This document shows, piece by piece, positions 2,868 through 21,309 of a stretch of 64,000 bases of DNA. The DNA is taken from assembly GCA_039588275.1 (NCBI GenBank), contig JBDHAC010000004.1:14447-78446 (forward strand), written 5' to 3'. The DNA comes from Gemmatimonadota bacterium. Lineage in GTDB: Bacteria > Gemmatimonadota > Gemmatimonadetes > Palauibacterales > Palauibacteraceae. A program made the translations under genes and the position numbers. The notes beneath the pieces are model-generated. The model saw only the letters and a program-made list of their open reading frames with translations. It was not told the origin of the DNA and searched no databases. Numbering within the stretch: the first letter of the stretch is position 1; each line of letters starts with the position of its first letter.

Positions 2868-4184
2868 TCAGGACTCCGATAGAACTCGCTCGCTCGTCTC
2901 GAAGAATGCCGCCAGCTCCTCGTCCGAGGTCATCAGGTTGGGCGAGATGCGGACCGAGTTGAGGCCCTGCGTACGGAAAGGCCTGAACACGAACCCGTGT
3001 TCCAGCATGCGCGTCGAGAACTCGGTGCTCGACAGCCCCTCGAGCGAGATGGCGACCAGGCAGGCGCCCATCTCCCAGCGCTCGGGCGAGCTCCAGCCGA
3101 GACCGGGCGCGGTCTTCACGCGCTCGCGCAACTGCTCGAAGAAGTGGCGATAGCGGGCCACCTTGGCCTGGAGACCGATCGCGTCCTGAAAATCGAGCGC
3201 ATCCCCGAGCGCCAACAGCGCCGGGAGATTGCGCGTCCCGTAGTCCTCGTACACGCGGGCGCTCCCCGCCCACCGCGTTTGCCCCCAGGTCACCCACATC
3301 GCGCGCAGCTCGGCGCGCTTCTCGGGCCGCGCGTACAGGAGTCCGAGGCCCTTTGGGCACTGCACCCACTTGTGCGGACTCGCGGCGTAGAAGTCGACGC
3401 CCGCCACCTCGGCCTCGATCGGAAGCATGCCCACGGTCTGGGCCCCGTCGACGGCCACGAACTCGACGCCGCGTTCGTGCGCCGCGCTCGCCAGCTCGGC
3501 CATCGGGTGCCTCAGACCGACGATGTTGTCGACGTGCGGGAAGGCGAGAACGCGGGTCTCGGGGCGAATCTGCTCGGCGTGGAGCTGGACGACGTCCTCA
3601 GCTGTCAGACCGGGGACGCTCTCGATCGGGATGTCGAACTGCCGGACGGTATAACCGCGGGCTTCCGCGTGGTGACGGAAGCACACGCTGGCCCCGTCGT
3701 GGTTGAGCGAGCTGAACAGCACCTCGTCCCCGGGACCGAGCGGGAGCCCCTGCGCGAGCAGGTTGAACCCCTCCGTCGTGTTGTGCGTGATCGCCACGTC
3801 CGCGGCCGGGACCCCGAGCGCCGCGGCACCCTTCGCGCGCACGGCCTCGCGCGGCTCCTCCCACGCACCGCCCCACATGTACAGCCACGGGTTCGTCTCG
3901 CACACGCCCAGGTAGGCCTTGTGGGCCTCGTGCACGACGCGAGGGATGGTCCCGATCGAAGCGTGATTCAGATAGGCGACGTCGGGGGCGAGGAGGTACT
4001 CCTCCCGCATACGGGCCGCGAATCGGCCGAGCTCGCCGTCCGCGTCCAACCGGTGGGCGCCGACCGCTCCCGAGACGTCCTCGGCCGAGCTTGCCAGCGC
4101 GCGATGCGCGTCTACCAAGGGCGCGACGGCAGCCGCGCCCAACGCCCCCGAGGCCCGCTTCAGGAACTCGCGGCGGTGTGTCAT
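2868..4184 (-). CDS. Tat-exported class V PLP-dependent aminotransferase (isopenicillin N epimerase/cysteine desulfurase-like fold)
   Basis: HRREFLK twin-arginine signal; YLNHAS, NTTEG, DGAQ and SPHKW (PLP lysine) motifs. Confidence 0.85.
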   Translation of the reverse strand: MTHRREFLKRASGALGAAAVAPLVDAHRALASSAEDVSGAVGAHRLDADGELGRFAARMREEYLLAPDVAYLNHASIGTIPRVVHEAHKAYLGVCETNPWLYMWGGAWEEPREAVRAKGAAALGVPAADVAITHNTTEGFNLLAQGLPLGPGDEVLFSSLNHDGASVCFRHHAEARGYTVRQFDIPIESVPGLTAEDVVQLHAEQIRPETRVLAFPHVDNIVGLRHPMAELASAAHERGVEFVAVDGAQTVGMLPIEAEVAGVDFYAASPHKWVQCPKGLGLLYARPEKRAELRAMWVTWGQTRWAGSARVYEDYGTRNLPALLALGDALDFQDAIGLQAKVARYRHFFEQLRERVKTAPGLGWSSPERWEMGACLVAISLEGLSSTEFSTRMLEHGFVFRPFRTQGLNSVRISPNLMTSDEELAAFFETSERVLSES

Positions 4185-4744
4185 CAACCTGTCCCGGGGC
4201 CCGTCCCGCGCGCGGCCCTGTCGTCACGGTACCGTTCGATCGATGCGTTGATGAGACCGGCCGCGGCGTAGCGATCTCGCCACCCGCTGATCTTCGTCTG
4301 GATGCCCTCGAGGTCTTTGTAGATCGTGAAGAAGTGTTCCACCTCGCGGAGGAAGTGGGGCGGGACATCCTCCAGCGCTTTCGAGTGGTCGTGCAGGGGA
4401 TCGCGGAGCGGCACGGCGAGGATCTTCTCGTCCACACCCGCCTGGTCTTCCATCTCGAACACGCCCAGTGGGCGCACCTCGATCAGACAGCCGGGGAACG
4501 TAGGCTCGCTGACCATCACGAGCACATCCATCGGGTCGCCGTCGTCCGCCAACGTCTGCGGGATGAACCCGTAGTCCGCCGGATAGAAAACGGCGCTGTA
4601 CAGGAGCCGGTCGAAGCGGATCAGGCCGGTCTCCTTGTCCAGCTCGTACTTGTTCCGCGAGCCGCGCGGGATCTCGACGAAGACGTTGAGCTCGTCGGGG
4701 GGGTTCGGGCCCGTGGGCAAGTCGTGCAGCGGGTTCAGCGCCAT
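4184..4744 (-). CDS. ppa: Family I inorganic pyrophosphatase
   Basis: EIPRGSRNKYE, YPADYGFIPQT, DGDPMD and HFFTIYKDLE motifs. Confidence 0.95.
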   Translation of the reverse strand: MALNPLHDLPTGPNPPDELNVFVEIPRGSRNKYELDKETGLIRFDRLLYSAVFYPADYGFIPQTLADDGDPMDVLVMVSEPTFPGCLIEVRPLGVFEMEDQAGVDEKILAVPLRDPLHDHSKALEDVPPHFLREVEHFFTIYKDLEGIQTKISGWRDRYAAAGLINASIERYRDDRAARGTGPGTG

Positions 4745-4785
4745 ATCGGCCCTCCGGGGCTCACGTCGAGGATTCCGTTCGCCGG

Positions 4786-6453
4786 TCAGAAGAGGCCGAC
4801 GACCTTCCCGTCTTCGAGGATCTGCATCCCCTCGGCCGCCGGTACCCTGGGCAGCCCGGGCATGATCATGACCGTACCAGTCCGCGCCACCACGAACCCC
4901 GCGCCGGAGGAGGGCCGCAGCTCCTGCACGGTGATCCGGAATCCCTCGGGGCGGCCGAGAACGGCCGGGTCGTCGGTCAGGCTGTTCGGCGTCTTGGCGA
5001 TGCAGACCGGTAATCCACCGAGCCCGATCGACTCGAGCTGCTTGAGGTCCTTCTGCGCGGGCTTCGTGTAGTCCACGCCGTCGGCCCCGTAGACCTGTGT
5101 CGCTATCGTCTCGATCTTCTCCGAGAGCGAGGCCTCCAGGGAGTAGAGCGGCGCGTAGTCGCTCTCGCGGGCCTCGAGGGCGTCGAGGACGGCGCGCGCG
5201 AGATCCTCGCTGCCTTCACCGCCGCGGGCATGCCCTTCCCAGCGGGCGGAGCGCACCCCGAGCGCCTCGCACGCTTCCGCCATCACGGTCAGCTCCTCCT
5301 CCGAGTCCGTGGCGAACACGTTCAGCGCCACCACCGGTGTCACACCGAATCTCCGCAGGTTCTCGACGTGCTTCTCGAGGTTGGGGGTGCCTCTGCGTAC
5401 CGCCTCCGGATCCGGCTCGGTCAACGCGTCCCTGGAACCACCGCCGTGCAGCTTCAGCGCCCGTGTCGTGGCGATCAGCACGACCGCCTCCGGGCGCAGG
5501 CCACCGACGCGGCACTTGATGTCGAAGAACTTCTCGGCGCCGAGATCCGATCCGAACCCGGCCTCGGTCACGACCACATCGCCGAACGCGATCCCGGCCC
5601 GTGTCGCCATCAACGAGTTGCACCCGTGCGCGATGTTGGCGAACGGACCGCCGTGCACGAACGCGGGCGTCCCCTCGAGCGTCTGCACCAGGTTCGGGGA
5701 CAGGGCCTCGCGCAGGAGGAGCGTCATCGCGCCGCTCACGTTGAGCGATTCCGCGTACACCGGCTCACCCGACGACGTGTAGCCGAGGAGGATGTTGCCG
5801 AGCCGATTCTGCAGGTCCTCGAGGCTCGAGGCCAGGCAGAAGATCGCCATCACCTCCGATGCGGCGGTGATCATGAAGCCGTCCTCGCGCGGGACGCCGT
5901 TGATGCGCCCGCCGAGCCCGAGCACGATGAAGCGCAACGCCCGGTCGTTCATGTCCACGGCTCGCCTCCAGCTGATCTGCCGGGGGTCGAGGCGGAGCGT
6001 GTTCCCCTGGTGCAGGTGATTGTCGAGGGCCGCCGAGAGGAGCGCGTGGGCCGATGTGATGGCGTGCAGATCGCCGGTGAAGTGCAGGTTGATGTCGGCC
6101 ATCGGGATGACCTGCGAGTACCCGCCCCCGGCCGCGCCGCCCTTGATCCCGAACACCGGGCCGAGGCTCGGCTCGCGAAGGGCCAGGACGCTCTTCGTCC
6201 CGATGCGGCGTAGCCCATCGGCCAGTCCCACCGCGACCGTGGTCTTTCCTTCGCCCGCAGCCGTCGGGGTGATCCCCGTCACCAACACGAGTCGCCCGGA
6301 GCCCGGCTCGCTCTCGATGATGGTCTCGGGACGGATCTTTGCCTTGAAGTGACCGTAGGGCTCCAGGTCCTCCGGCGAGAGGCCCAGCGAGGCGGCGATT
6401 TCCGTGATCGGGCGCGGGGTCGCGGCCTGCGCGATCTCGACGTCCGTTAACAT
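4786..6453 (-). CDS. fhs: Formate--tetrahydrofolate ligase
   Basis: TPTAAGEGKTT, GIKGGAAGGGYSQV, HGGPFANIAHG and TEAGFG motifs; ATG at 6453 with GGAGGGG SD. Confidence 0.97.
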   Translation of the reverse strand: MLTDVEIAQAATPRPITEIAASLGLSPEDLEPYGHFKAKIRPETIIESEPGSGRLVLVTGITPTAAGEGKTTVAVGLADGLRRIGTKSVLALREPSLGPVFGIKGGAAGGGYSQVIPMADINLHFTGDLHAITSAHALLSAALDNHLHQGNTLRLDPRQISWRRAVDMNDRALRFIVLGLGGRINGVPREDGFMITAASEVMAIFCLASSLEDLQNRLGNILLGYTSSGEPVYAESLNVSGAMTLLLREALSPNLVQTLEGTPAFVHGGPFANIAHGCNSLMATRAGIAFGDVVVTEAGFGSDLGAEKFFDIKCRVGGLRPEAVVLIATTRALKLHGGGSRDALTEPDPEAVRRGTPNLEKHVENLRRFGVTPVVALNVFATDSEEELTVMAEACEALGVRSARWEGHARGGEGSEDLARAVLDALEARESDYAPLYSLEASLSEKIETIATQVYGADGVDYTKPAQKDLKQLESIGLGGLPVCIAKTPNSLTDDPAVLGRPEGFRITVQELRPSSGAGFVVARTGTVMIMPGLPRVPAAEGMQILEDGKVVGLF

Positions 6454-12149: not shown

Positions 12150-13838
12150 ATGACCGACGAGAGCAGACAGACGGAGGGCGTCCCCGGGGCATCGGAGCCG
12201 CCCATCATCGCATCGCTCGTCCACCTGTCGGGTCCGCTGCGGGGCACGACCCAGCGCCTCACGGATCTGGTCATTCGCATCGGGACGGCGGCAGATGCCG
12301 AGGTCCATTTCCCGACCGATCGAGCGCCGAACGTGGGAGAGCACCACGCAACGCTCACCCGGCAGGAGCGGACCTACGTGATCAGGTCGCTGGACGATCA
12401 CGAAGTGCGCGTCAACGGCGGGCCGGTGGAGCGCCGCGTCCTCGAGTGCGAGGACGTGATCGAGCTCGGCGCGCGGGGTCCCATCCTCCGCTTCCGCTGT
12501 GGGGCTCGTTCCCAGGCGCGGCACAAGAGCATGCGCGAAGCGCTCGCCGATTGCGTCGACTGCGCGCGGGCCACGGGTGACAGCCGAGTGGGCGCCATCT
12601 GGGCCTTTCTCCGTACCTTCCCGCATGAGCTGATGACGCAGACGACGCCTCGCACACGTGGCGTCGTGGTGGCGATGCTGTTCGTGATGGCGGTGGGCTT
12701 CGGGGCCATCTTCCTGTACGGCCTCGGTCTCGAGCGGCGCCTCGCGCGTGAGTCGGCGCGCGTTTACGACATCGCCGCGCTGCTCGAGGGCGGGGAAGAG
12801 GCACTGCCGACCCGACAGGAGCTCGGTCGCATCCGGGCCGATCTCGAGGGGCAGGTGTCGAGTGCCGTCGAGCGGGTCGAAGCGCTCGAGGCCAGGAGCT
12901 CCGCGGCGGAGCGCGTGATCGAGACGGCGGCGCGATCCGTCGTGTTCCTGCAGGGATCGTACGGCTTCCTACAGCCACCGGATCAGCGTCCGCTCCGCGT
13001 GATGCTCGGTCCGGGTGGCCAACCGCTGACCGATGCGCGAGGCAACCCGCTCGCCAGCCCGGACGCGGACGGACCGCGGTTGGAGCGTCAGTTCACGGGC
13101 ACCGGCTTCGTGATCACGGAGGGCGGTTTCCTCCTCACGAACCGTCACATCGTCGTGCCCTGGGATTTCGACCCCACCGCGCGGCGTCTCGTCGAGGCGG
13201 GGCTCACGCCGGTCATGTACCGTCTGATCGGATACGTGCCCGATACCGAAGAGCCGTTCGAGCTCGAGACCGTCGGCGCCAGTGAAAGCGCGGACGTGGC
13301 CGTGCTCCGGGCGGATGGCCTCCCGGCCCAGGTCATCCCGCTCGTACTCTCCGAGGCTCCTCCGCAGCCGGGCGCCGAGGTGCTGGTGCTGGGCTACCCG
13401 ACGGGGATACGGGCGTTGCTGGCGCGGACCGACCCCGCCTTCGTCGACGAGCTGATGCAAACGCCCGGCATCGACTTCTGGGAGGTCGCGCGGCGACTCT
13501 CGCAGGCCGGGCACATCGCGCCGCTGGCGACACGCGGGATCGTCGGACAGGTGACTTCGACGCACGTCGTGTACGACGCGGAAACGACGCGCGGGGGCAG
13601 CGGCGGGCCCGTGCTGGGTCTCGACGATCGAGTGATCGCGGTCAACGCGGCCGTCCTGAACGAGTTCGGGGGATCGAATCTCGGCGTGCCTGCGGCCGAG
13701 GCCTTCGCACTGCTCGAAGCCCTGTCGACTCGGGGTGAGGCGGCGGAGGGTTCCGAGGACCCTCAAAGGCTTGAGGACCCACAGAGGCCGGGTGCGCACG
13801 GCCCGGGGACTCCGGACACCCTTCCAAGGCGCCATTGA
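12150..13838 (+). CDS. FHA-like domain + TM + coiled coil + trypsin-like serine protease
   Basis: N-terminal FHA-like fold (VNGGPV..L..EDVIELG); TM GVVVAMLFVMAVGFGAIFLY; protease TGTGF, TNRH, DVAVL and GGSGGP. Confidence 0.85.
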   Translation: MTDESRQTEGVPGASEPPIIASLVHLSGPLRGTTQRLTDLVIRIGTAADAEVHFPTDRAPNVGEHHATLTRQERTYVIRSLDDHEVRVNGGPVERRVLECEDVIELGARGPILRFRCGARSQARHKSMREALADCVDCARATGDSRVGAIWAFLRTFPHELMTQTTPRTRGVVVAMLFVMAVGFGAIFLYGLGLERRLARESARVYDIAALLEGGEEALPTRQELGRIRADLEGQVSSAVERVEALEARSSAAERVIETAARSVVFLQGSYGFLQPPDQRPLRVMLGPGGQPLTDARGNPLASPDADGPRLERQFTGTGFVITEGGFLLTNRHIVVPWDFDPTARRLVEAGLTPVMYRLIGYVPDTEEPFELETVGASESADVAVLRADGLPAQVIPLVLSEAPPQPGAEVLVLGYPTGIRALLARTDPAFVDELMQTPGIDFWEVARRLSQAGHIAPLATRGIVGQVTSTHVVYDAETTRGGSGGPVLGLDDRVIAVNAAVLNEFGGSNLGVPAAEAFALLEALSTRGEAAEGSEDPQRLEDPQRPGAHGPGTPDTLPRRH

Positions 13839-14414: not shown

Positions 14415-14484
14415 GCAGGTCGCCCGACTCTTCAGCGACCTGCACGAGACGAGGCGCGAGCCCGGAGAGACGACCCGGGCTCGC
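14415..14484 (+). terminator. Two tandem GC hairpins after the basic protein gene (terminator or mRNA stabiliser)
   Basis: GCAGGTCGC/GCGACCTGC 9-bp stem (14415-14443) and GCGAGCCCGG/CCGGGCTCGC 10-bp stem (14456-14484); no immediate U-tract. Confidence 0.45.
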
Positions 14485-14542: not shown

Positions 14543-15781
14543 GTGCAGCAATCACTGACACTCGGCGGCCAGACGGGGCGCAGGGCGCTCAGCTTCTCGT
14601 TTGGCGTCGGCATGATCGTCTCGTCGATCATGACGGTACGGCACTACTTCGCCGCCAACTTTCCCGAATCCATCTTCGAAGGCTCCTTTTGCGACATCAA
14701 CGCGTTCTTCAACTGTGACGCTTCGGCATACGCGGTCATATCACAGATAGGCGGTGTGCCGCTCGGCTATTTCGGCATGTCCGTCGGGCTGCTGGTCGTT
14801 ATGGGAGCGGTGTTTCCGTCACTGGAGGTCGAGAGGACCAACAAGACGATCGCCCTGGTGAACGTGATCGGCGTCGTGGCGCTTCTTCTGTATTCCGTGT
14901 CTTACATGCGAAGCCTGTGCCTGCTGTGCGCCGGTTTCTACCTGTTCTCTATCGCCAACTTCGTCCTGTTCTGGCGGTACGGGATCGATCGGGACCAGCC
15001 GGGGCTTTTCGCCCGCTACTTTCAGCCTTCCGCGAGGCACGCCCTCGCGTTCGGAACGGTCATGCTGGGCGGAGCGTACGGCTTCGCCGAGTACCACGAG
15101 GCCAGGGAGGAAGCGCAATCAGGTAGCGTCGCCGCCCGCGTGGTGGAGGAGTTCTACAGCCTGCCGACGGTGGAGTGGCCCAGCTTCATCTCTCCGTATT
15201 GGACCATGAGGTCGACCGAGAACTTCGAGGACGCACCGATCCGGATCGTCGAGTACGTCGACCTCCTGTGCCCGGACTGCCTGTATCTCGCGGAGCAGAT
15301 GGAGCGAGCGGCGCAGGACTTTCACGGGAAGATCAACCTCGCGTATCAGCTCTTCCCGTTGGAGGCGGCGTGCAACGACGTGGTCGAAAAGGACCTGCAC
15401 CCGGGCGCCTGCGATGTCTCGTACATGGCCGCGTACGACCCCGACAAGTTCCATGACATTCAGGAGGACATCTGGGCCAACTTTCGAGCGGCCCGCACAC
15501 CCGAAGGGCGTGAGGAGCTTGCCCGGAAGTACCAGGTCGACGCTGCGCTGACCGACTCGGCCACGATCCACCTCGTGCGCCGGATGATCGAGACGGGCCG
15601 CGAGTACGAAAAGACGTCGGAGGAGTACTCGCACGGCATCCGGTCGACGCCGACGATGATCGTCAACAACCGCATGATCATCGGCACGTTCCCCTACGAG
15701 CAGCTCAAAGCCATCTTCCAGGCGCTCGTGGATGAGCACGAGGGCGGAGGCCGGTTCATGGAGAACTGGGTGGAGGAGTAG
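14543..15781 (+). CDS. VKOR (vitamin K epoxide reductase) - DsbA/thioredoxin fusion
   Basis: Loop Cys pair CDINAFFNC, TM CLLC, then thioredoxin CPDC and cis-Pro STPT. Confidence 0.88.
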   Translation: MQQSLTLGGQTGRRALSFSFGVGMIVSSIMTVRHYFAANFPESIFEGSFCDINAFFNCDASAYAVISQIGGVPLGYFGMSVGLLVVMGAVFPSLEVERTNKTIALVNVIGVVALLLYSVSYMRSLCLLCAGFYLFSIANFVLFWRYGIDRDQPGLFARYFQPSARHALAFGTVMLGGAYGFAEYHEAREEAQSGSVAARVVEEFYSLPTVEWPSFISPYWTMRSTENFEDAPIRIVEYVDLLCPDCLYLAEQMERAAQDFHGKINLAYQLFPLEAACNDVVEKDLHPGACDVSYMAAYDPDKFHDIQEDIWANFRAARTPEGREELARKYQVDAALTDSATIHLVRRMIETGREYEKTSEEYSHGIRSTPTMIVNNRMIIGTFPYEQLKAIFQALVDEHEGGGRFMENWVEE

Positions 15782-16667
15782 GAGGCTGCTGACGAACCCG
15801 AGTGGGCCGCGCGCCCATCGAAGGAGAGTCACGACGCGGCTGGCATGGGTCGGAGCCTTCGCGGCGCTGTTGTACGCCCCGCTCGACGGACACGGGCAAG
15901 CGCGGCGCGATCCGGTCCTGCAGCCGGTATCGGCGGTGAAGGCGCGGACCATCCTTCTCGGCGCGGGCCTGGCCTGGGGGTCGGACCGCTCGTTCCCTCT
16001 CTCCGGACTCGAAGGCAATCTTCTCTCGATAGGGCGTCTGAGTCTCGCCTACGCGCTCGCCGACCGGGTCCTCCTCGAAATCCGGGGCGACGTGTGGCAA
16101 ACGCTGTGGGTGGATGAGGCCGACCCTCCTCCAATCCCACTCGACTCCGATGCGCAGGACGGCCGCACAGGGGATGTCGGCGATTTTCGCATCGGCTTGC
16201 TCCTCGCGCCGATCGGGGGTGAGCGCGGCTTCTCGGCCGGGGCACACGTGGAGGTGAAGCTCCCAAACTCGAACGAGGCGAAAGGGATCGGATCCAACAC
16301 GACGGATGTGCGGCTCGCTCTACTCGGTTCGTACGGGGCTCCCCGTTGGCGCGCGACCGTCAGCCTCGGGGTCGGGATCCTCGAGGCCCCGGTGGAGAGC
16401 TTCGAGCAGAACGACGTCTTTCTGTATGCGGGCGAGCTGCTCTATCGGGTGGGGTCGGGCTTGCGGCTCGCCCTCGGTCTGGAAGGCCGTGCCAGCACCC
16501 GTGATCGGGTCCCTCTCGGGACCGAGGACCTCGGCGAGGTCGTCATCGGGGCGGACTATCGGCTCGGATCCTGGCTCCTGGATGTGGGCCTGACCCGGGG
16601 ACTCGTGGAGGACTCGTCGGAGTGGGGCGTGAGGGCGGGGTGGGCATACGCGGCCGGTGGGCCCTGA
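15732..16667 (+). CDS. Putative outer-membrane beta-barrel protein
   Basis: Signal-like hydrophobic stretch, alternating amphipathic strands, terminal WGVRAGWAY; start uncertain. Confidence 0.65.
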   Translation: MSTRAEAGSWRTGWRSRRLLTNPSGPRAHRRRVTTRLAWVGAFAALLYAPLDGHGQARRDPVLQPVSAVKARTILLGAGLAWGSDRSFPLSGLEGNLLSIGRLSLAYALADRVLLEIRGDVWQTLWVDEADPPPIPLDSDAQDGRTGDVGDFRIGLLLAPIGGERGFSAGAHVEVKLPNSNEAKGIGSNTTDVRLALLGSYGAPRWRATVSLGVGILEAPVESFEQNDVFLYAGELLYRVGSGLRLALGLEGRASTRDRVPLGTEDLGEVVIGADYRLGSWLLDVGLTRGLVEDSSEWGVRAGWAYAAGGP

Positions 16668-16712: not shown

Positions 16713-18803
16713 TCAGGGCTGCCCCCCACCTCCGACCGACCGGTCGATCCCGAGCACGAGCCCGGCCGCCAGCGTCGTGAAGGACTCGCTCCCACCCGGA
16801 GGTCGTTGGTGCCTCACGAAGATTTGGAAGCGACTCGAAGCCCCGAGATCGGCCGATAGACGGAACTGGCCCTCGAGCAGGGACCCGCTCAGGTCGTCGG
16901 ACTGGCTCTCCACCGACCCGTATCCGAACACCGGCTCGATCTCGAGCGGACCGACGGGGCGGTACGCGAACCCGAGGTAGCCCCGCACTTCGCTCTCCGC
17001 GATCCGTCGGTCGTCGAGCACCGTGACCGTCTCACCGAAGTATACGGCTGGCCGTACCGCGAAACGATCGCTCGCCTGGATGTCGGCCCTCCCGTAGCCG
17101 ACCCAATCGTCCCGGTCGAACCACCGTCCCAGGTACCCGCCGAACGCGATTTCACCGCGACCCTGCGTGAGCTTGACCGCTTGCTCCCCGTGGTAGACGT
17201 ACTCGAACAGATCCCCCGCCTGGTTCCTCCGCCCGGCCTCGAACGAGGTGATCAGACGACGATCCTGGCCCCAGGCGAGCGCCAGCCCTCCGAAGTAGGA
17301 CTCCAGATCCTGAGTGCGGCGGACGAACAACGGGTTGTGGAGTCCGAGCGCGTTGTCGTATCGACCCCATATGCGCAGGAACGGGAACGGCCAGATGGAC
17401 GCCTCGACCATGATGGTCCCCGTCGTCTCGCCGGTCTCGATCGCCGTGCCGCCCCAGATGTCCAGCTGCAGCCATGGAGGCAGGCTCGGGAGGGACGCGA
17501 GCTGGGCGTCGACCTGCTCCGAGAGCTCGGGGTCAAGCTCGAGCGCGCGGCGGAAGGCGGCGCGAGCCTCGTCCATCTCACCGGCCGCTGCCCACGCGCG
17601 CCCCAGCTCGAACCAGGCCTCGGCGTCGTCGGGGTCGAGCGAGACGGCCCCCTGATACAGCCGTAGGGCTCCCTCGGCGTCTCCGCTCGCGAGCGCCTCG
17701 GCCGCCAGCTGCTTCCGCTGGAGGACGATCGCCGCTGTCTCACCCGCCTCCTCCACCGCCTGCTCGATCTGGGGTTGGCGCTCATCTGCGGGATCGGGCG
17801 CCGCCTCCTCCGGGTCGCCGGCGGTCGGTGGGCCCTGCTCTTCGGGTTCCGGTGCCTCGGCTATCGCCGTAACGGGGGACGGCATCACCGGCAACGAAGC
17901 CAGCGTGAGGCCATCGCTCTGCACTTCCAGGACGTAGCGTGCCAGCTCCGCGGTCGCCGGGACCGTGAACAGCACGGTTCCGCTCGCGTCAGCCGTGCGC
18001 GTCGACTCCTGCACGGGTGGCGGAGTGCCCACGAGCCCGCGGGAAGTCGCCCGAGCACGAAGCGTCAGAACGGCGTTGGGAACGCGGTTCCCGTACCTGT
18101 CGAACGCGACCGCCGACACCTCGAGGGTCCCGGTGGGCTCGTCCGGGAGGACGAGCCGATCCGGCTCGACTTCGACCCGCGCGGGTGAGCCCGCTGCGAC
18201 ATCCAGCACTACCCCTACCGGGCCGGTCAACGATTCGCCCACCGCGGTGACCACGAGCGAATGGCTTGCCGCCCCGGTCCCGGCCGGAACTCGAAATCGG
18301 GCCTGGCCCTGAGCGTCGGTGGTCGCGCGCATGGTGCTGGCCAGGCCGCCGGGGATGTTCTCGGTGCCTCTCAGGACCAGTTGTACCCCTGCTCGCGGAC
18401 CCTCAGGGCCGCGCAGCTGCACCGTCAGCGTCGCGGTGCCGCCAACGCGGGCAGCCAACCTCGGCGTGGAGAGGCTGATGAGAAGCGGCGTGGGCTCAGC
18501 GGGAGTGGGTGGAGGTGACGCGCACGCGTCGATCGCGGCCAGGATCGTCGCATCAGCACCGAGCTGCCGCAGATCGGCAAGGTCACGAGCGCTGGGCTCG
18601 AAGCTCAGGCAACTGCGCTGGACTATGGCCACCACTTCGGGACGGGTATACGTCCCGCCGCTCAGGAGGCGGGTCAGATCGCTCTTCGAGAGCGGTGCCG
18701 GACGCCGGGCGCCGGGGTCCTGGCCCTGGGCGAGCCCCGGACACGCCGCCAGTACGGCGAAGAGAATCGCGGCGCCGCGCAGCATACCGACCGATCGGGT
18801 CAC
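16713..18803 (-). CDS. Secreted protein: helical N-domain + two Ig-like (Big_1-like) domains + TPR + C-terminal beta-barrel
   Basis: Signal peptide; TTDAQGQARF and TADASGTVLF Ig motifs; TPR DPDDAEAWFELGRAW..A..AFRRALELDP; strand-rich C-terminus; GTGA overlap with upstream gene. Confidence 0.75.
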   Translation of the reverse strand: MTRSVGMLRGAAILFAVLAACPGLAQGQDPGARRPAPLSKSDLTRLLSGGTYTRPEVVAIVQRSCLSFEPSARDLADLRQLGADATILAAIDACASPPPTPAEPTPLLISLSTPRLAARVGGTATLTVQLRGPEGPRAGVQLVLRGTENIPGGLASTMRATTDAQGQARFRVPAGTGAASHSLVVTAVGESLTGPVGVVLDVAAGSPARVEVEPDRLVLPDEPTGTLEVSAVAFDRYGNRVPNAVLTLRARATSRGLVGTPPPVQESTRTADASGTVLFTVPATAELARYVLEVQSDGLTLASLPVMPSPVTAIAEAPEPEEQGPPTAGDPEEAAPDPADERQPQIEQAVEEAGETAAIVLQRKQLAAEALASGDAEGALRLYQGAVSLDPDDAEAWFELGRAWAAAGEMDEARAAFRRALELDPELSEQVDAQLASLPSLPPWLQLDIWGGTAIETGETTGTIMVEASIWPFPFLRIWGRYDNALGLHNPLFVRRTQDLESYFGGLALAWGQDRRLITSFEAGRRNQAGDLFEYVYHGEQAVKLTQGRGEIAFGGYLGRWFDRDDWVGYGRADIQASDRFAVRPAVYFGETVTVLDDRRIAESEVRGYLGFAYRPVGPLEIEPVFGYGSVESQSDDLSGSLLEGQFRLSADLGASSRFQIFVRHQRPPGGSESFTTLAAGLVLGIDRSVGGGGQP

Positions 18804-20926
18804 GGCACGATCCGTAGCCGCGTGGGTGGCGCGGGTGGAGTCGTGTCGGCCACCCGCGGCGTCGTGACGTTTACCGCGGCGCTTCGTGCGCTCTCGAGGC
18901 CCGCGCCGTTGACGGCCGAGACCTGGTAGCTGTACTGCGTGTTCGCGACCACCGTCGTGTCCGCGAACGTCGTCGTAGTGCTCGTGGCCCTGACTGCTCC
19001 GTTTCGGTAGATGCGATAGCTAGCGACGCCCGACTCGGGGTCCGTCGCGGCGCTCCACGTCAAAGTAACGCGTGTGGGCCCCTCAGGCGTGACAACGAGT
19101 CCGGCCGGCACCGTCGGCGGCGAAGTATCCGCCGAGGCGGGCGTCGTGATGCTCAGCGGGGCGCTGCGCGCGCTCTCGATTCCCTCGCCGTTGATGGCGG
19201 AGATCTGGTAGCTGTAGGTCGTGCTCGCCTGTAGGCCGGCATCCATGAAACTCGTGCTTGTGCTCGACCCGACGCGCGCGCCGTCGCGATAGATGTTGTA
19301 GCTGTCCACGCCGGACTCGGGGTCGCTTGAAGCGCTCCAGGTGAGGGTGACGCTCGTCGGAGACGTCGCGCTCGCCGCCAGGTCGGCAGGTACCGTAGGC
19401 GGCGTCGTGTCGGCCGGAGCCGGTGTGGTCACGCTTACCGCGGTGCTCAGACCACTCTCCAGGCCCTCTCCGTTCACCGCGGAAACCTGATAACGGTACG
19501 TGTTTCCACCCCGCACGCCGCCGTCCGTGAAGGTCGTGTTCGTGCTCGACCCGACGCGCGCGCCGTCGCGGTAGATGTTGTAGCTGTCCACGCCGGACTC
19601 GGGGTCGCTTGAAGCGCTCCAGGTGAGGGTGACGCTCGTCGGAGACGTCGCGCTCGCCGCCAGTCCCGTGGGCACCGTAGGTGGCGTGGTGTCGGGCGGG
19701 GGGAGCGTGGTGACCACGACGGTCGCCGTAGGCGGACCCTCCAGTCCGTCCCCGTTTACGGCTGTCACCTGATAGCTGTATTGCGTGGAGCCGGTAAGCC
19801 CCGTGTCGCTGAACGAAGTGGTCGTGCTGGAGCCGACGATGCTGCCATCGCGGTAGATGTTGTAGCTGGCCACGCCGGACTCCGGATCGCTGGCGGCCGT
19901 CCACGTGAGAGCGACCCGATCGTGAGCAACGGCCTGCGCCGCGAGTCCGGAGGGCGCGGTTGGCGGGGTATCGTCGGCCGTCTGAACCGTCACGGAGGCG
20001 CTCAGGGCACCTTCGGTGCCGGCCCCGTTCACGGCGGAGACCTCGTAGGTGTACGTCGTGTTCCCGCTCAACCCCGTGTCCGAGAAGGTCGTGGTCGTGT
20101 TGGAGCCCACGATGGCGCCATCGCGGTAGATGTTGTAGCTGTCCACGCCGGATTCGGGGTCCGAGGCCGCCGTCCACGAGAGATCCACCTGTGTCGCCCC
20201 GGCGGCAATGGCGGCCAGCGCGGTCGGGGCCGTCGGCGGCGTGTTGTCGAACGTGGTCGCCAGGATCCGGACGCTCAGCGCTCCCTCGAGACCCTCTCCG
20301 TTCACCGCGCTGACCTGGTACGAATAGGTCTGGTTCACCTGCAGCCCCGTGTCGGAAAAGGTCGTGGTGGAGCTCGACCCGACCTGTGCTCCGTCGCGGT
20401 AGATGTTGTAGCTGGCGATGCCCGTCTCTGGGTCCGAGGCCGGCGCCCACCGGAGGTCCACGCTCGTGGCCCCGATCGAAGTGGCCGTCAGGCCAGTCGG
20501 TTGCGTGGGAGGCGTAATGTCGGGGAGTGGCGTGGTGACGGTGGTGGGCGGGGTGCTGCGCGGTCCTTCCTGATCCAGCGAATCCACCGCCGAAACGCGG
20601 TACGAGTAGGTCGTGACCGGCTGAACCGTCGTATCGATGAAGCTGGTCGTCGTGGACGTGAAGACCGGACCGTCCCCCCGGTAGATGACATAGTGCTTCA
20701 CGGGTGGCTGGCTGACCACCGCATCCCACGTGATCCGGACGCGACGGCTGCTGAGCGCCGTGGCTGCCACGTTGCGCGGTTTGCTGGGCGCAACGGTGGT
20801 GCGGTCCGCGTCGGGAGAGGCCCCGGAGCGCGGTGCCGGCGCCGCCCCTGCAAGCACAACGGTCAGGAGCACGAGCCCGAGCGCCATCCGGGATTCCGGT
20901 CTCCACGCCCCGCCGAGCCCGCTCAT
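18800..20926 (-). CDS. Secreted protein with 7 tandem fibronectin type III domains and a C-terminal orphan strand
   Basis: Seven PxxPxxL..V.L.W..YNIYRDG..Y.Y.VSAVN units of about 92-94 aa; signal MALGLVLLTVVLAGA; ATG at 20926 overlaps the upstream stop. Confidence 0.9.
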   Translation of the reverse strand: MSGLGGAWRPESRMALGLVLLTVVLAGAAPAPRSGASPDADRTTVAPSKPRNVAATALSSRRVRITWDAVVSQPPVKHYVIYRGDGPVFTSTTTSFIDTTVQPVTTYSYRVSAVDSLDQEGPRSTPPTTVTTPLPDITPPTQPTGLTATSIGATSVDLRWAPASDPETGIASYNIYRDGAQVGSSSTTTFSDTGLQVNQTYSYQVSAVNGEGLEGALSVRILATTFDNTPPTAPTALAAIAAGATQVDLSWTAASDPESGVDSYNIYRDGAIVGSNTTTTFSDTGLSGNTTYTYEVSAVNGAGTEGALSASVTVQTADDTPPTAPSGLAAQAVAHDRVALTWTAASDPESGVASYNIYRDGSIVGSSTTTSFSDTGLTGSTQYSYQVTAVNGDGLEGPPTATVVVTTLPPPDTTPPTVPTGLAASATSPTSVTLTWSASSDPESGVDSYNIYRDGARVGSSTNTTFTDGGVRGGNTYRYQVSAVNGEGLESGLSTAVSVTTPAPADTTPPTVPADLAASATSPTSVTLTWSASSDPESGVDSYNIYRDGARVGSSTSTSFMDAGLQASTTYSYQISAINGEGIESARSAPLSITTPASADTSPPTVPAGLVVTPEGPTRVTLTWSAATDPESGVASYRIYRNGAVRATSTTTTFADTTVVANTQYSYQVSAVNGAGLESARSAAVNVTTPRVADTTPPAPPTRLRIVP
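19260..19663. repeat. Near-identical intragenic duplication between FN3 domains 5 and 6
   Basis: 19260-19381 matches 19542-19663 (122 bp, one mismatch seen, offset 282 bp). Confidence 0.85.
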
Positions 20927-21309
20927 TCTCCTCTGAGCTCCGCGCTGACCTCGCCGGACAGGGCGCTCTCGTTGCCGTCCAGGTCGAGCGCCGTCACCGC
21001 GAAGTAGTAAATGCCGCCGGACAGGTGGGTCAGCGTGTGGGTCGTCTCGGAGCCTACCTCCACCATGGTGCTGGCGTCTTTCGTGAGCGGCGTCGTTTGG
21101 CTGTAATAGAGCCTGTACGAGGCCAAGTCGGTGAGCGGCGCCCCGGTGGCATCCGTGGCAGGGGGATCCCAGGCAAGGGTGATCGAAAATGTCTGGATCT
21201 GGGAAGGTGGTCCGGTGAAATCCGCCGGTGCGCCGGGCTGGCAGGCCATCCCGAGTGAAACCAGGACTGCGAGGACCGACCTGCGTCCCCGGGAAGGGAA
21301 TCCGTCCAT
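20923..21309 (-). CDS. Lipoprotein with a single FN3-like domain
   Basis: RGRRSVLAVLVSLGMA-C lipobox; ITLAWD, YRLYY and YYFAVTALD..GNES motifs. Confidence 0.82.
   Translation of the reverse strand: MDGFPSRGRRSVLAVLVSLGMACQPGAPADFTGPPSQIQTFSITLAWDPPATDATGAPLTDLASYRLYYSQTTPLTKDASTMVEVGSETTHTLTHLSGGIYYFAVTALDLDGNESALSGEVSAELRGE

Follow-up and report, generated by a model that had tools for sequence, protein, structure and literature searches.

How might a long secreted rod of fibronectin type III (FN3) domains, which has a signal peptide and no lipid attachment site of its own, be fastened to a membrane? This question is raised by three genes on the minus strand of a 64,000-nucleotide stretch of DNA from a Gemmatimonadota bacterium of the family Palauibacteraceae (assembly GCA_039588275.1, contig JBDHAC010000004.1, forward-strand positions 14,447 to 78,446), which as a whole we call the window. 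The genes encode, in order, a small lipoprotein (P0001), a rod of seven FN3 units (P0002) and a protein with immunoglobulin (Ig)-like domains, tetratricopeptide repeats (TPR) and a predicted beta-barrel (P0003). An earlier note on this DNA had proposed that the C-terminal strand of the rod completes the FN3 fold of the lipoprotein. The reading that we consider best, and probably right, is a lipid anchor of two parts held together non-covalently, through strand complementation. Its computational support comprises conservation, structure prediction, a complex model with controls, co-occurrence, gene fusion and a pattern in which related proteins carry either a lipobox or the tail. The unit concerned appears to be smaller and more versatile than the three-gene FN3 system described in the note, consisting of two genes, an anchor and a tagged cargo, of which the cargo can be an enzyme-like protein that is not built of FN3 units.

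Translation reproduced the gene order and both of the overlaps first read from the sequence, and Pfam and an AlphaFold2 model the Ig/TPR/barrel layout of P0003. The P0001 stop codon TGA (20923-20925) overlaps the ATG of P0002 (20924-20926) in an ATGA junction, and direct reading of the sequence places the P0002 stop over the GTG start of P0003 in a GTGA junction; an alternative P0003 start at Met7 would leave a 15-nt gap in place of this second overlap. The P0001 start at 21309 is backed by several homologues of 128 amino acids (aa) that begin with the same Met, as MDGF or MDGV. Genes on the opposite strand border the run on both sides, and promoter and terminator scans found none.

The lipoprotein appears to lack one strand of its fold. 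All 23 aligned homologues keep its lipobox Cys, and the segment from this Cys to strand B is Pro/Gly-rich in them and variable in length and composition, the shortest, of 9 residues, occurring in one sister-family lipoprotein. AlphaFold2, supplied with the 23-row alignment, predicted the mature protein with a predicted local distance difference test (pLDDT) score of 84.1 and a predicted template modelling score of 0.72. The model contains six strands (residues 19-24, 40-48, 59-64, 68-74, 77-87 and 99-103), strand A not being among them, and residues 1-18 form a low-confidence coil (pLDDT 50-68). A complete seven-stranded fold would have spoken against the idea that a full A strand is absent, and the model did not produce one. 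Foldseek matched the model to ordinary FN3 domains, while the Pfam fn3 match (PF00041; 23.6 bits, under the gathering cut-off of 25) spans only positions 9-76 of the 84 in the profile. The PP-to-Trp region reads PPSQIQTFSITLAW, and Trp is the 12th residue on the count that makes it the 17th past the second Pro of PxxP in rod units 1, 3, 4, 5 and 7; counting by eye thus bore out the spacings of 12 and 17 given before. The model suggests that this FN3 domain natively lacks its edge strand A.

The rod, by comparison, seems to carry one such strand too many. Pfam recognizes seven fn3 stretches in P0002 (E 3.1e-66, 220 bits, above the gathering cut-off), of which units 5 and 6 are near-copies in DNA (tandem period 282 bp, 2.3 copies, 81% matches). 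The statement that every unit begins DxTPP does not hold for unit 1, which begins SKPRNVAATAL. The protein then ends in ...PRVADTTPPAPPTRLRIVP, directly before the stop codon. This tail is in the register of an FN3 A strand at a unit start and differs from one in its residues. Fourteen tailed proteins supplied 59 internal A strands, in which the conserved Leu is followed by a mixed position, then by Ala (50/59), then mostly by T, S or Q; in the 14 tails it is followed by R (13) or H (1), then by V, I or L in every case, then by V, I, A or G. The tail signature is therefore L-R-[VIL]-[VI], as opposed to L-x-A-[TS] in internal strands. Six-frame translation of the window's genome gives 21,593 open reading frames (ORFs) of 100 aa or more, and the strict tail motif terminates 1 of them, namely P0002 itself, which argues that the tail is more than a chance sequence; the lipoprotein profile likewise finds one lipoprotein in that genome. 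A degenerate DNA version of the tail pattern gave 5 matches in three genomes and 5 for its reversed control, so that this count is uninformative; its five matches were four already-known tails and one 17-codon frame.

We then considered whether the tail is kept in relatives. A P0003 search of 61 related genomes found full-length homologues within the window's family, and eight fetched loci repeat the order lipoprotein, multi-FN3 protein, P0003 homologue. The FN3 proteins of these eight loci have 5-8 units and all end in D-x-[IVLT]-P-P-[AS]-[AP]-P-[TS]-x-L-[RH]-[VIL]-[VIA]. When ten rod tails from 8 genera were aligned, P104, P105, P108 and L111 (numbered as in the complex model below) proved invariant. 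Tailed rods range in size from about 2 to 10 FN3 units. A recent truncation of an eighth FN3 unit was rejected on these grounds, the tail being kept across genera and repeat numbers, and the interpretation of the rod end as an orphan A strand stands.

The lipoprotein profile matched 42 of the 145 genomes of the order, in 14 of its 32 genera (38/113 in the window's family and 3/31 in the sister family, plus the window's own genome). In a phylum-wide sample, strong matches (E below 1e-30) occurred in 5 of 401 genomes, and the tail motif was found within 1.5 kb of weak FN3 matches elsewhere in the phylum at 0 of 23 loci. The earlier note had suggested a genome search for proteins with this ending beside such lipoproteins. 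After 40 more places had been fetched, a census here covered 57 lipoprotein ORFs in the window and 52 further loci. In 12 of these the contig ended or sequence was missing; the other 45 have a downstream or fused frame whose end lies within the sequence, and all 45 of these frames have PPxxPxxLR at or near the C-terminus. The strict tail is C-terminal in 41, two carry variants (LRVT, LRSF), one rod is frameshifted with the tail on its second piece, and one tail is followed by 26 extra residues. At least four genomes have modules in tandem, in the order lipoprotein, rod, lipoprotein, rod, barrel, and a free-standing two-gene unit of lipoprotein and cargo was found flanked by an opposite-strand gene.

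Two of the loci seen in these searches are recorded separately. The extended tail lies at L120:4830-5360 on the minus strand, where the motif DTTPPAPPNALRVVQ is followed by the 26 residues with no stop and the rod is in pieces; it may be either an assembly error or a decaying copy. The second, L187, comes from an uncultured bacterium outside Gemmatimonadota and encodes an FN3 lipoprotein (a 141-aa stop-to-stop frame, match 4001-4276) and, downstream at 3931-5925 on the plus strand, a secreted protein that gives the impression of a right-handed beta-helix and ends in ...SVKPKAPAGVKVR before the stop. This ending resembles the tail (PxAPxG-hydrophobic-K/R-V) and fails the strict motif; divergent versions of the lipoprotein-tail pair may thus exist in other phyla.

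The same earlier note had asked for a model of the complex. We built one from the lipoprotein alignment and an alignment of the last FN3 unit plus tail, unpaired. The complex scored 0.70, and the best of three controls scored 0.02. The score mark applied is reached by 58 of 80 solved complexes and by 2 of 110 mismatched pairs, counts that are only a rough guide here because our own alignments were supplied. Three runs shared at least 97% of contacts, with a partner pLDDT of at least 84. On the partner side the interface consists only of residues 98 and 100-114, and 15 of these 16 residues lie in the tail, R98 being just upstream of it. The pairs with the lowest predicted error (W25-L111, A24-R112, L23-I113 and T22-I113) run antiparallel along strand B, and P107 and P108 of the tail contact lipoprotein residues 83-85, 93 and 96 on the F/G side. 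In the model the tail thus takes the place that an A strand occupies in FN3 domains, as had been predicted. The complex model supports binding of the tail to the lipoprotein, with the reservation that its success may stem from completion of a familiar fold.

Cargo that is not an FN3 rod bears on the purpose of such binding. Three sister-family genomes contain five loci where the lipoprotein gene is overlapped or followed by a gene for a tailed protein whose N-terminal domain resembles DUF4185 (38.7 bits, a little below the 39.5-bit cut-off); the endings include ...DLIPPAPPRGLRVGN and ...DLLPPAPPAGLRVVGTP, each directly before the stop codon. Some of these proteins have in addition a single FN3 unit or a pair of them, together with another domain; the 380-aa DUF4185-like cargo at L109 has the tail and no FN3 unit at all. 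Adjacent tail-less paralogues of the DUF4185-like domain bear their own lipobox at 3 of 3 loci (VAGC, GSGC and LAGC), indicating that the same domain is either lipidated directly or given a tail behind the FN3 lipoprotein. Of the comparative arguments for anchoring, we give this alternation, as read from the sequences, the most weight. A fused form occurs in one genus, where two genomes have the lipoprotein FN3 and the tailed rod in one frame (L067:2731-5376 and L115:150-1727), joined by an Ala/Gly-rich, weakly hydrophobic stretch that resembles the former signal peptide of the rod.

The third gene is distributed differently from the pair. A barrel gene follows 18 of 43 tailed-cargo genes, all of them encoding long rods, with one match ending at a contig edge; 4 other pairs have too little sequence, about five lie upstream of a second module that ends in a barrel gene, and the remainder have at least 1.8 kb downstream without a barrel gene. 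Two genomes (G037 and G040) contain the pair, and their best P0003 match reaches only about 1e-6, on the TPR alone. Since the barrel gene follows only some of the pairs (18 of 43) and certain pair-bearing genomes lack it, P0003 is best described as an accessory of the long-rod form. The possibility that it is an obligatory partner was rejected on the same figures, together with the stand-alone two-gene unit.

With a 39-row alignment, P0003 was modelled at a pLDDT of 88.1, with a signal peptide and a disordered acidic linker between the Ig-like and TPR parts in addition to the domains listed in Table 1. Foldseek matched its barrel to generic outer-membrane barrels and, at low TM-scores, to the TPR-barrel exporters PelBC, BcsC and PgaA. 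The barrel searched alone against Pfam gave 0 families at E<=10; when 39 members of the P0003 family were searched at E<=1, PF04575 was not among the 25 families listed of 62. Faint PF04575 matches only (16.1 and 10.9 bits) were found in the window's genome, on contig C12 outside the window. Membership of P0003 in the DUF560, YaiO or PgaA families by sequence is therefore not supported by Pfam, and Foldseek returned only generic barrels. We take P0003 to be an accessory that may act in export or assembly, perhaps as the pore suggested in the earlier note, or may be a partner at the outer membrane.

A whole-library search with P0003 returned 139 representatives at E<=1e-30. Judged by length and matched range, about 50 of the 150 matches listed look like full-length relatives or TPR-barrel ones, the rest being long multi-TPR proteins. 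Twelve P0003 paralogues (L023-L034; for example L031:3188-5945 and L024:1328-6374) belong to another conserved operon, in which an SH3-domain protein (ending ...ARVRTGRSALMGAPILDLL..) is followed by a protein matched weakly to JAB/MPN, with the ending ...NRHFDASGCPRPE, and then by the barrel protein; the tail motif was not found in this operon of the twelve relatives. Separately, a P0003 paralogue of about 368 aa on contig C19 of G000 (79982-80872, outside the window) has the N-terminal helical domain and the TPR and no barrel, and short barrel-less forms of this kind are present in many related genomes.

Several observations weigh against strand complementation or reduce the force of the evidence for it. 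The 45 pairs come from kin genomes, in 14 genera of one Gemmatimonadota order and with several paralogous modules in one genus, so that 45 of 45 is a measure of consistency and not a count of 45 independent events. At loci added later, the longest frame downstream of the lipoprotein was taken to be the cargo, and some tails were initially found by a regular expression for the motif, the FN3 frames having been located independently by tblastn. By eye, no clear covariation between tail and lipoprotein residues was seen in 41 distinct pairs; three paralogous pair types in one genus do differ in both partners, a difference confounded by descent. FN3 domains and intramolecular A-B pairing are abundant in solved structures, and the success of the complex model may consequently reflect memory of the fold. 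Finally, other phyla also have domains of this FN3 subtype, usually at the C-terminus of a protein or directly behind a signal peptide; these domains likewise show no evident A strand, and a tail-bearing gene lay downstream of such relatives at 0 of 41 loci. The missing strand is hence a trait of the subfamily and need not require completion. The Gemmatimonadota lipoproteins appear to exploit it.

How far, then, could the tail be explained otherwise? It might be a C-terminal sorting or export signal for other machinery, for example the TPR of P0003, with the lipoprotein merely a co-exported neighbour; we think this unlikely. TPRs often bind extended C-terminal peptides, and the TPR-barrel gene overlaps the stop codon of the rod in the window besides following the 18 pairs. 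A TPR domain and a predicted 14-stranded barrel, encoded beside genes for a lipoprotein and for a secreted protein without lipid, also resemble type XI secretion as outlined in PMC8406197. However, the tail accompanies the lipoprotein in all 45 readable cases, often without a barrel gene, and does so in both genomes whose best P0003 match is faint and confined to the TPR; conversely, the twelve paralogues of P0003 sit in an operon where the motif was not found, and the complex model puts the tail on the lipoprotein. The chance that the tail is instead a conserved linker remnant that binds nothing, its adjacency to the lipoprotein reflecting shared regulation and the model an artefact of fold memory, seems to us slight. 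Such an account draws on the register of the tail, which matches that of a unit start, on the A-strand-less domains of the same subtype that have no tailed partner elsewhere, and on the tendency of structure predictors to complete familiar folds. A remnant would not be expected to hold a signature unlike that of internal strands over 14 genera, to occur after non-FN3 domains or to give way to a lipobox in tail-less paralogues, and the controls of the complex model reached at most 0.02.

The contact itself might be real and serve another end, building a polymer or a transient assembly intermediate, such as a chaperone-like hold or head-to-tail chains, rather than a stable 1:1 anchor. We consider this quite unlikely. 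The fusion of lipoprotein FN3 and tailed rod in one genus could allow head-to-tail joining, and tandem modules are present in the four or more genomes noted above. The unfused lipoprotein, by contrast, has no donor strand and every domain of the rod has its own A strand, so that chains cannot grow in the unfused form; rod-to-rod polymerisation was rejected for that form for this reason. The lipobox-or-tail pattern, too, suits anchoring better. We therefore retain as probable the reading in which the bound tail completes the fold of the lipoprotein.

The proposed anchor would work as follows. The lipid-bearing Cys of the lipoprotein would be followed by a Pro/Gly-rich tether leading directly into strand B of an FN3 domain without strand A. 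The partner, exported by Sec and bearing no lipid, would end in a tag of 12-15 residues (D-x-x-P-P-x-x-P-x-x-L-R-[VIL]-[VI]) that inserts as the missing A strand, its LR[VIL][VI] part pairing antiparallel with strand B and its PPxxP part packing against the F/G side. Completion of the fold would fasten the cargo to the lipid-anchored adaptor, either at the periplasmic face or at the cell surface. With a length of 3.5 nm for each FN3 domain, the seven-unit rod of the window would, if extended, form a stalk of about 25 nm on a lipid foot. The product of the third gene would join the long-rod versions only, as an accessory. A bolder formulation, to which we give somewhat less than an even chance, is that this is an undescribed class of anchoring: a natural split-FN3 tag and catcher with a PPxxPxxLRVV tag, through which diverse Sec cargo, FN3 rods and enzyme-like domains alike, would borrow the lipid of an adaptor. 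In its long-rod versions a Slam-like TPR and 14-strand barrel would deliver the assembly to the outer membrane or keep it there, giving stalks of about 25 nm.

The features of the three genes are collected in Table 1. Among the other proteins of this part of the window, Pfam identified a VKOR-DsbA fusion, an FHA-protease and a SnoaL-like protein as neighbours. The first is a 412-aa protein (14543-15781, plus strand) in which a vitamin K epoxide reductase domain is fused to a DsbA-like thioredoxin domain, and the second a 562-aa protein (12150-13838, plus strand) that combines an FHA/YscD-like domain at its N-terminus with a membrane segment and a trypsin-like protease domain. A 311-aa protein (15732-16667, plus strand) convergent with the operon has 0 Pfam or NCBIfam matches; by eye, its C-terminal two thirds resemble the alternating beta-strands of an outer-membrane protein.

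Table 1 Features of the lipoprotein, rod and barrel-protein genes, in window coordinates
Feature	Position	Strand	Evidence
P0001, anchor lipoprotein gene, 128 aa	20923..21309	(-)	Translation; 19 homologues of 108-159 aa
P0001 signal peptide and lipobox LGMA-C; Cys23 codon 21241-21243	21241..21309	(-)	Sequence
P0001 Pro/Gly-rich tether, mature residues 2-18, at the canonical position of FN3 strand A	21190..21240	(-)	Alignment, AlphaFold2
P0001 predicted six-stranded FN3 core (B, C, C', E, F, G)	20935..21189	(-)	AlphaFold2, Pfam, Foldseek
P0002, 7xFN3 rod gene, 708 aa, Sec-type signal peptide, without lipobox	18800..20926	(-)	Translation, Pfam
P0002 FN3 units 1-7, all complete and including an A strand	18848..20788	(-)	Translation, Pfam, A-strand count
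P0002 C-terminal tag DTTPPAPPTRLRIVP, proposed donor A strand	18803..18847	(-)	Conservation, signature, complex model
P0003, Ig/TPR/barrel gene, 696 aa, accessory outer-membrane protein	16713..18803	(-)	Translation; homologue searches
P0003 four-helix domain, residues 40-95, two nearly invariant Cys	18519..18686	(-)	AlphaFold2, alignment
P0003 two Ig-like domains, residues 107-308	17880..18485	(-)	AlphaFold2; Big_1 in 31/39 family members
P0003 TPR region, residues 344-437	17493..17774	(-)	Pfam TPR_16 E 1.3e-11; AlphaFold2 helices
P0003 C-terminal 14-stranded beta-barrel, residues 445-686	16746..17471	(-)	AlphaFold2/DSSP, pLDDT mostly above 90

If the proposed anchor is real, it would be a further general route of membrane attachment, non-covalent, modular and dependent on a short portable tag, to be placed beside lipoboxes, sortase, exosortase and the signals of the type IX secretion system (T9SS). 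A protein without a lipobox of its own would be lipid-anchored, and cargo could be swapped on a single adaptor. Donor-strand complementation would extend from the polymerisation of pili to anchoring by a heterodimer, and a conserved operon would gain a function in Gemmatimonadota, few of whose envelope proteins have been characterised. The pair would also offer protein engineering a natural peptide and its protein partner.

Donor-strand complementation is established for chaperone-usher pili, in which, as proposed here, one protein supplies in trans a terminal extension that fills out the incomplete Ig-like fold of another. There the pilin lacks its C-terminal G strand, an N-terminal extension fills the gap, and a PapD-like chaperone and a PapC-like usher are needed; PapD- and PapC-type Pfam families were not found in the three window proteins. 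Nor did we meet subunits that are donor and acceptor at once, as in pili, since the lipoprotein has no tail and the seven rod units are complete, the fused form of one genus being a possible exception. Type V pili of Bacteroidia (FimA/Mfa1 stalks, FimB/Mfa2 anchors) have a lipidated anchor and a C-terminal donor that fills the groove left by a missing N-terminal strand in a beta-sandwich; their pilins are lipoproteins and the groove is opened by Rgp cleavage, according to PMC13655056. The anchor pilin Mfa2 itself has donor strands in that account (PMC13655056), and the subunits polymerise, whereas here the anchor would accept a strand, form a heterodimer and serve varied cargo. The folds differ as well, being transthyretin-like double sandwiches with a protease-made groove in type V pili, as against an FN3 domain from which the strand seems natively absent, with no protease implied.

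In its modelled architecture P0003 is closest to type XI secretion (Slam, DUF560), where a periplasmic TPR domain and a 14-stranded barrel act next to genes for lipoprotein or unlipidated cargo, according to PMC8406197; P0003 likewise combines TPR with a predicted 14-strand barrel and has cargo genes directly upstream. Membership by sequence fails, however: P0003 and its relatives have no PF04575 match among the families listed, they carry extra helical and Ig-like domains, and the cargo here has no TbpB-like barrel domain. The comparison with PgaA and BcsC made in the earlier note is upheld for the order of TPR and outer-membrane barrel and by the Foldseek matches (PelBC 9h80_M, BcsC 9b8a and PgaA 4y25). 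It falls short in the low TM-scores (TMq 0.24-0.29) and in the strand number, 14 in the P0003 model instead of the 16 that PMC8406197 gives for the PgaA barrel. In addition, the gene list and Pfam placed no synthase gene beside P0003 in the window.

Among the papers found by full-text searches outside the subscription journals, none, judged by listings and passages, describes such a lipoprotein-tail pair, in agreement with the prior impression that a system of this layout has not been reported. SpyTag/SpyCatcher, engineered from a CnaB2 domain, rests on a peptide tag that supplies a missing Ig-like strand and is locked by an isopeptide bond. Both it and the window pair use a short peptide as a strand tag, and the window pair would be natural, non-covalent and based on FN3. 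Provided that the tail binds as we think probable, strand complementation as an anchoring device would be a new use of donor-strand complementation.

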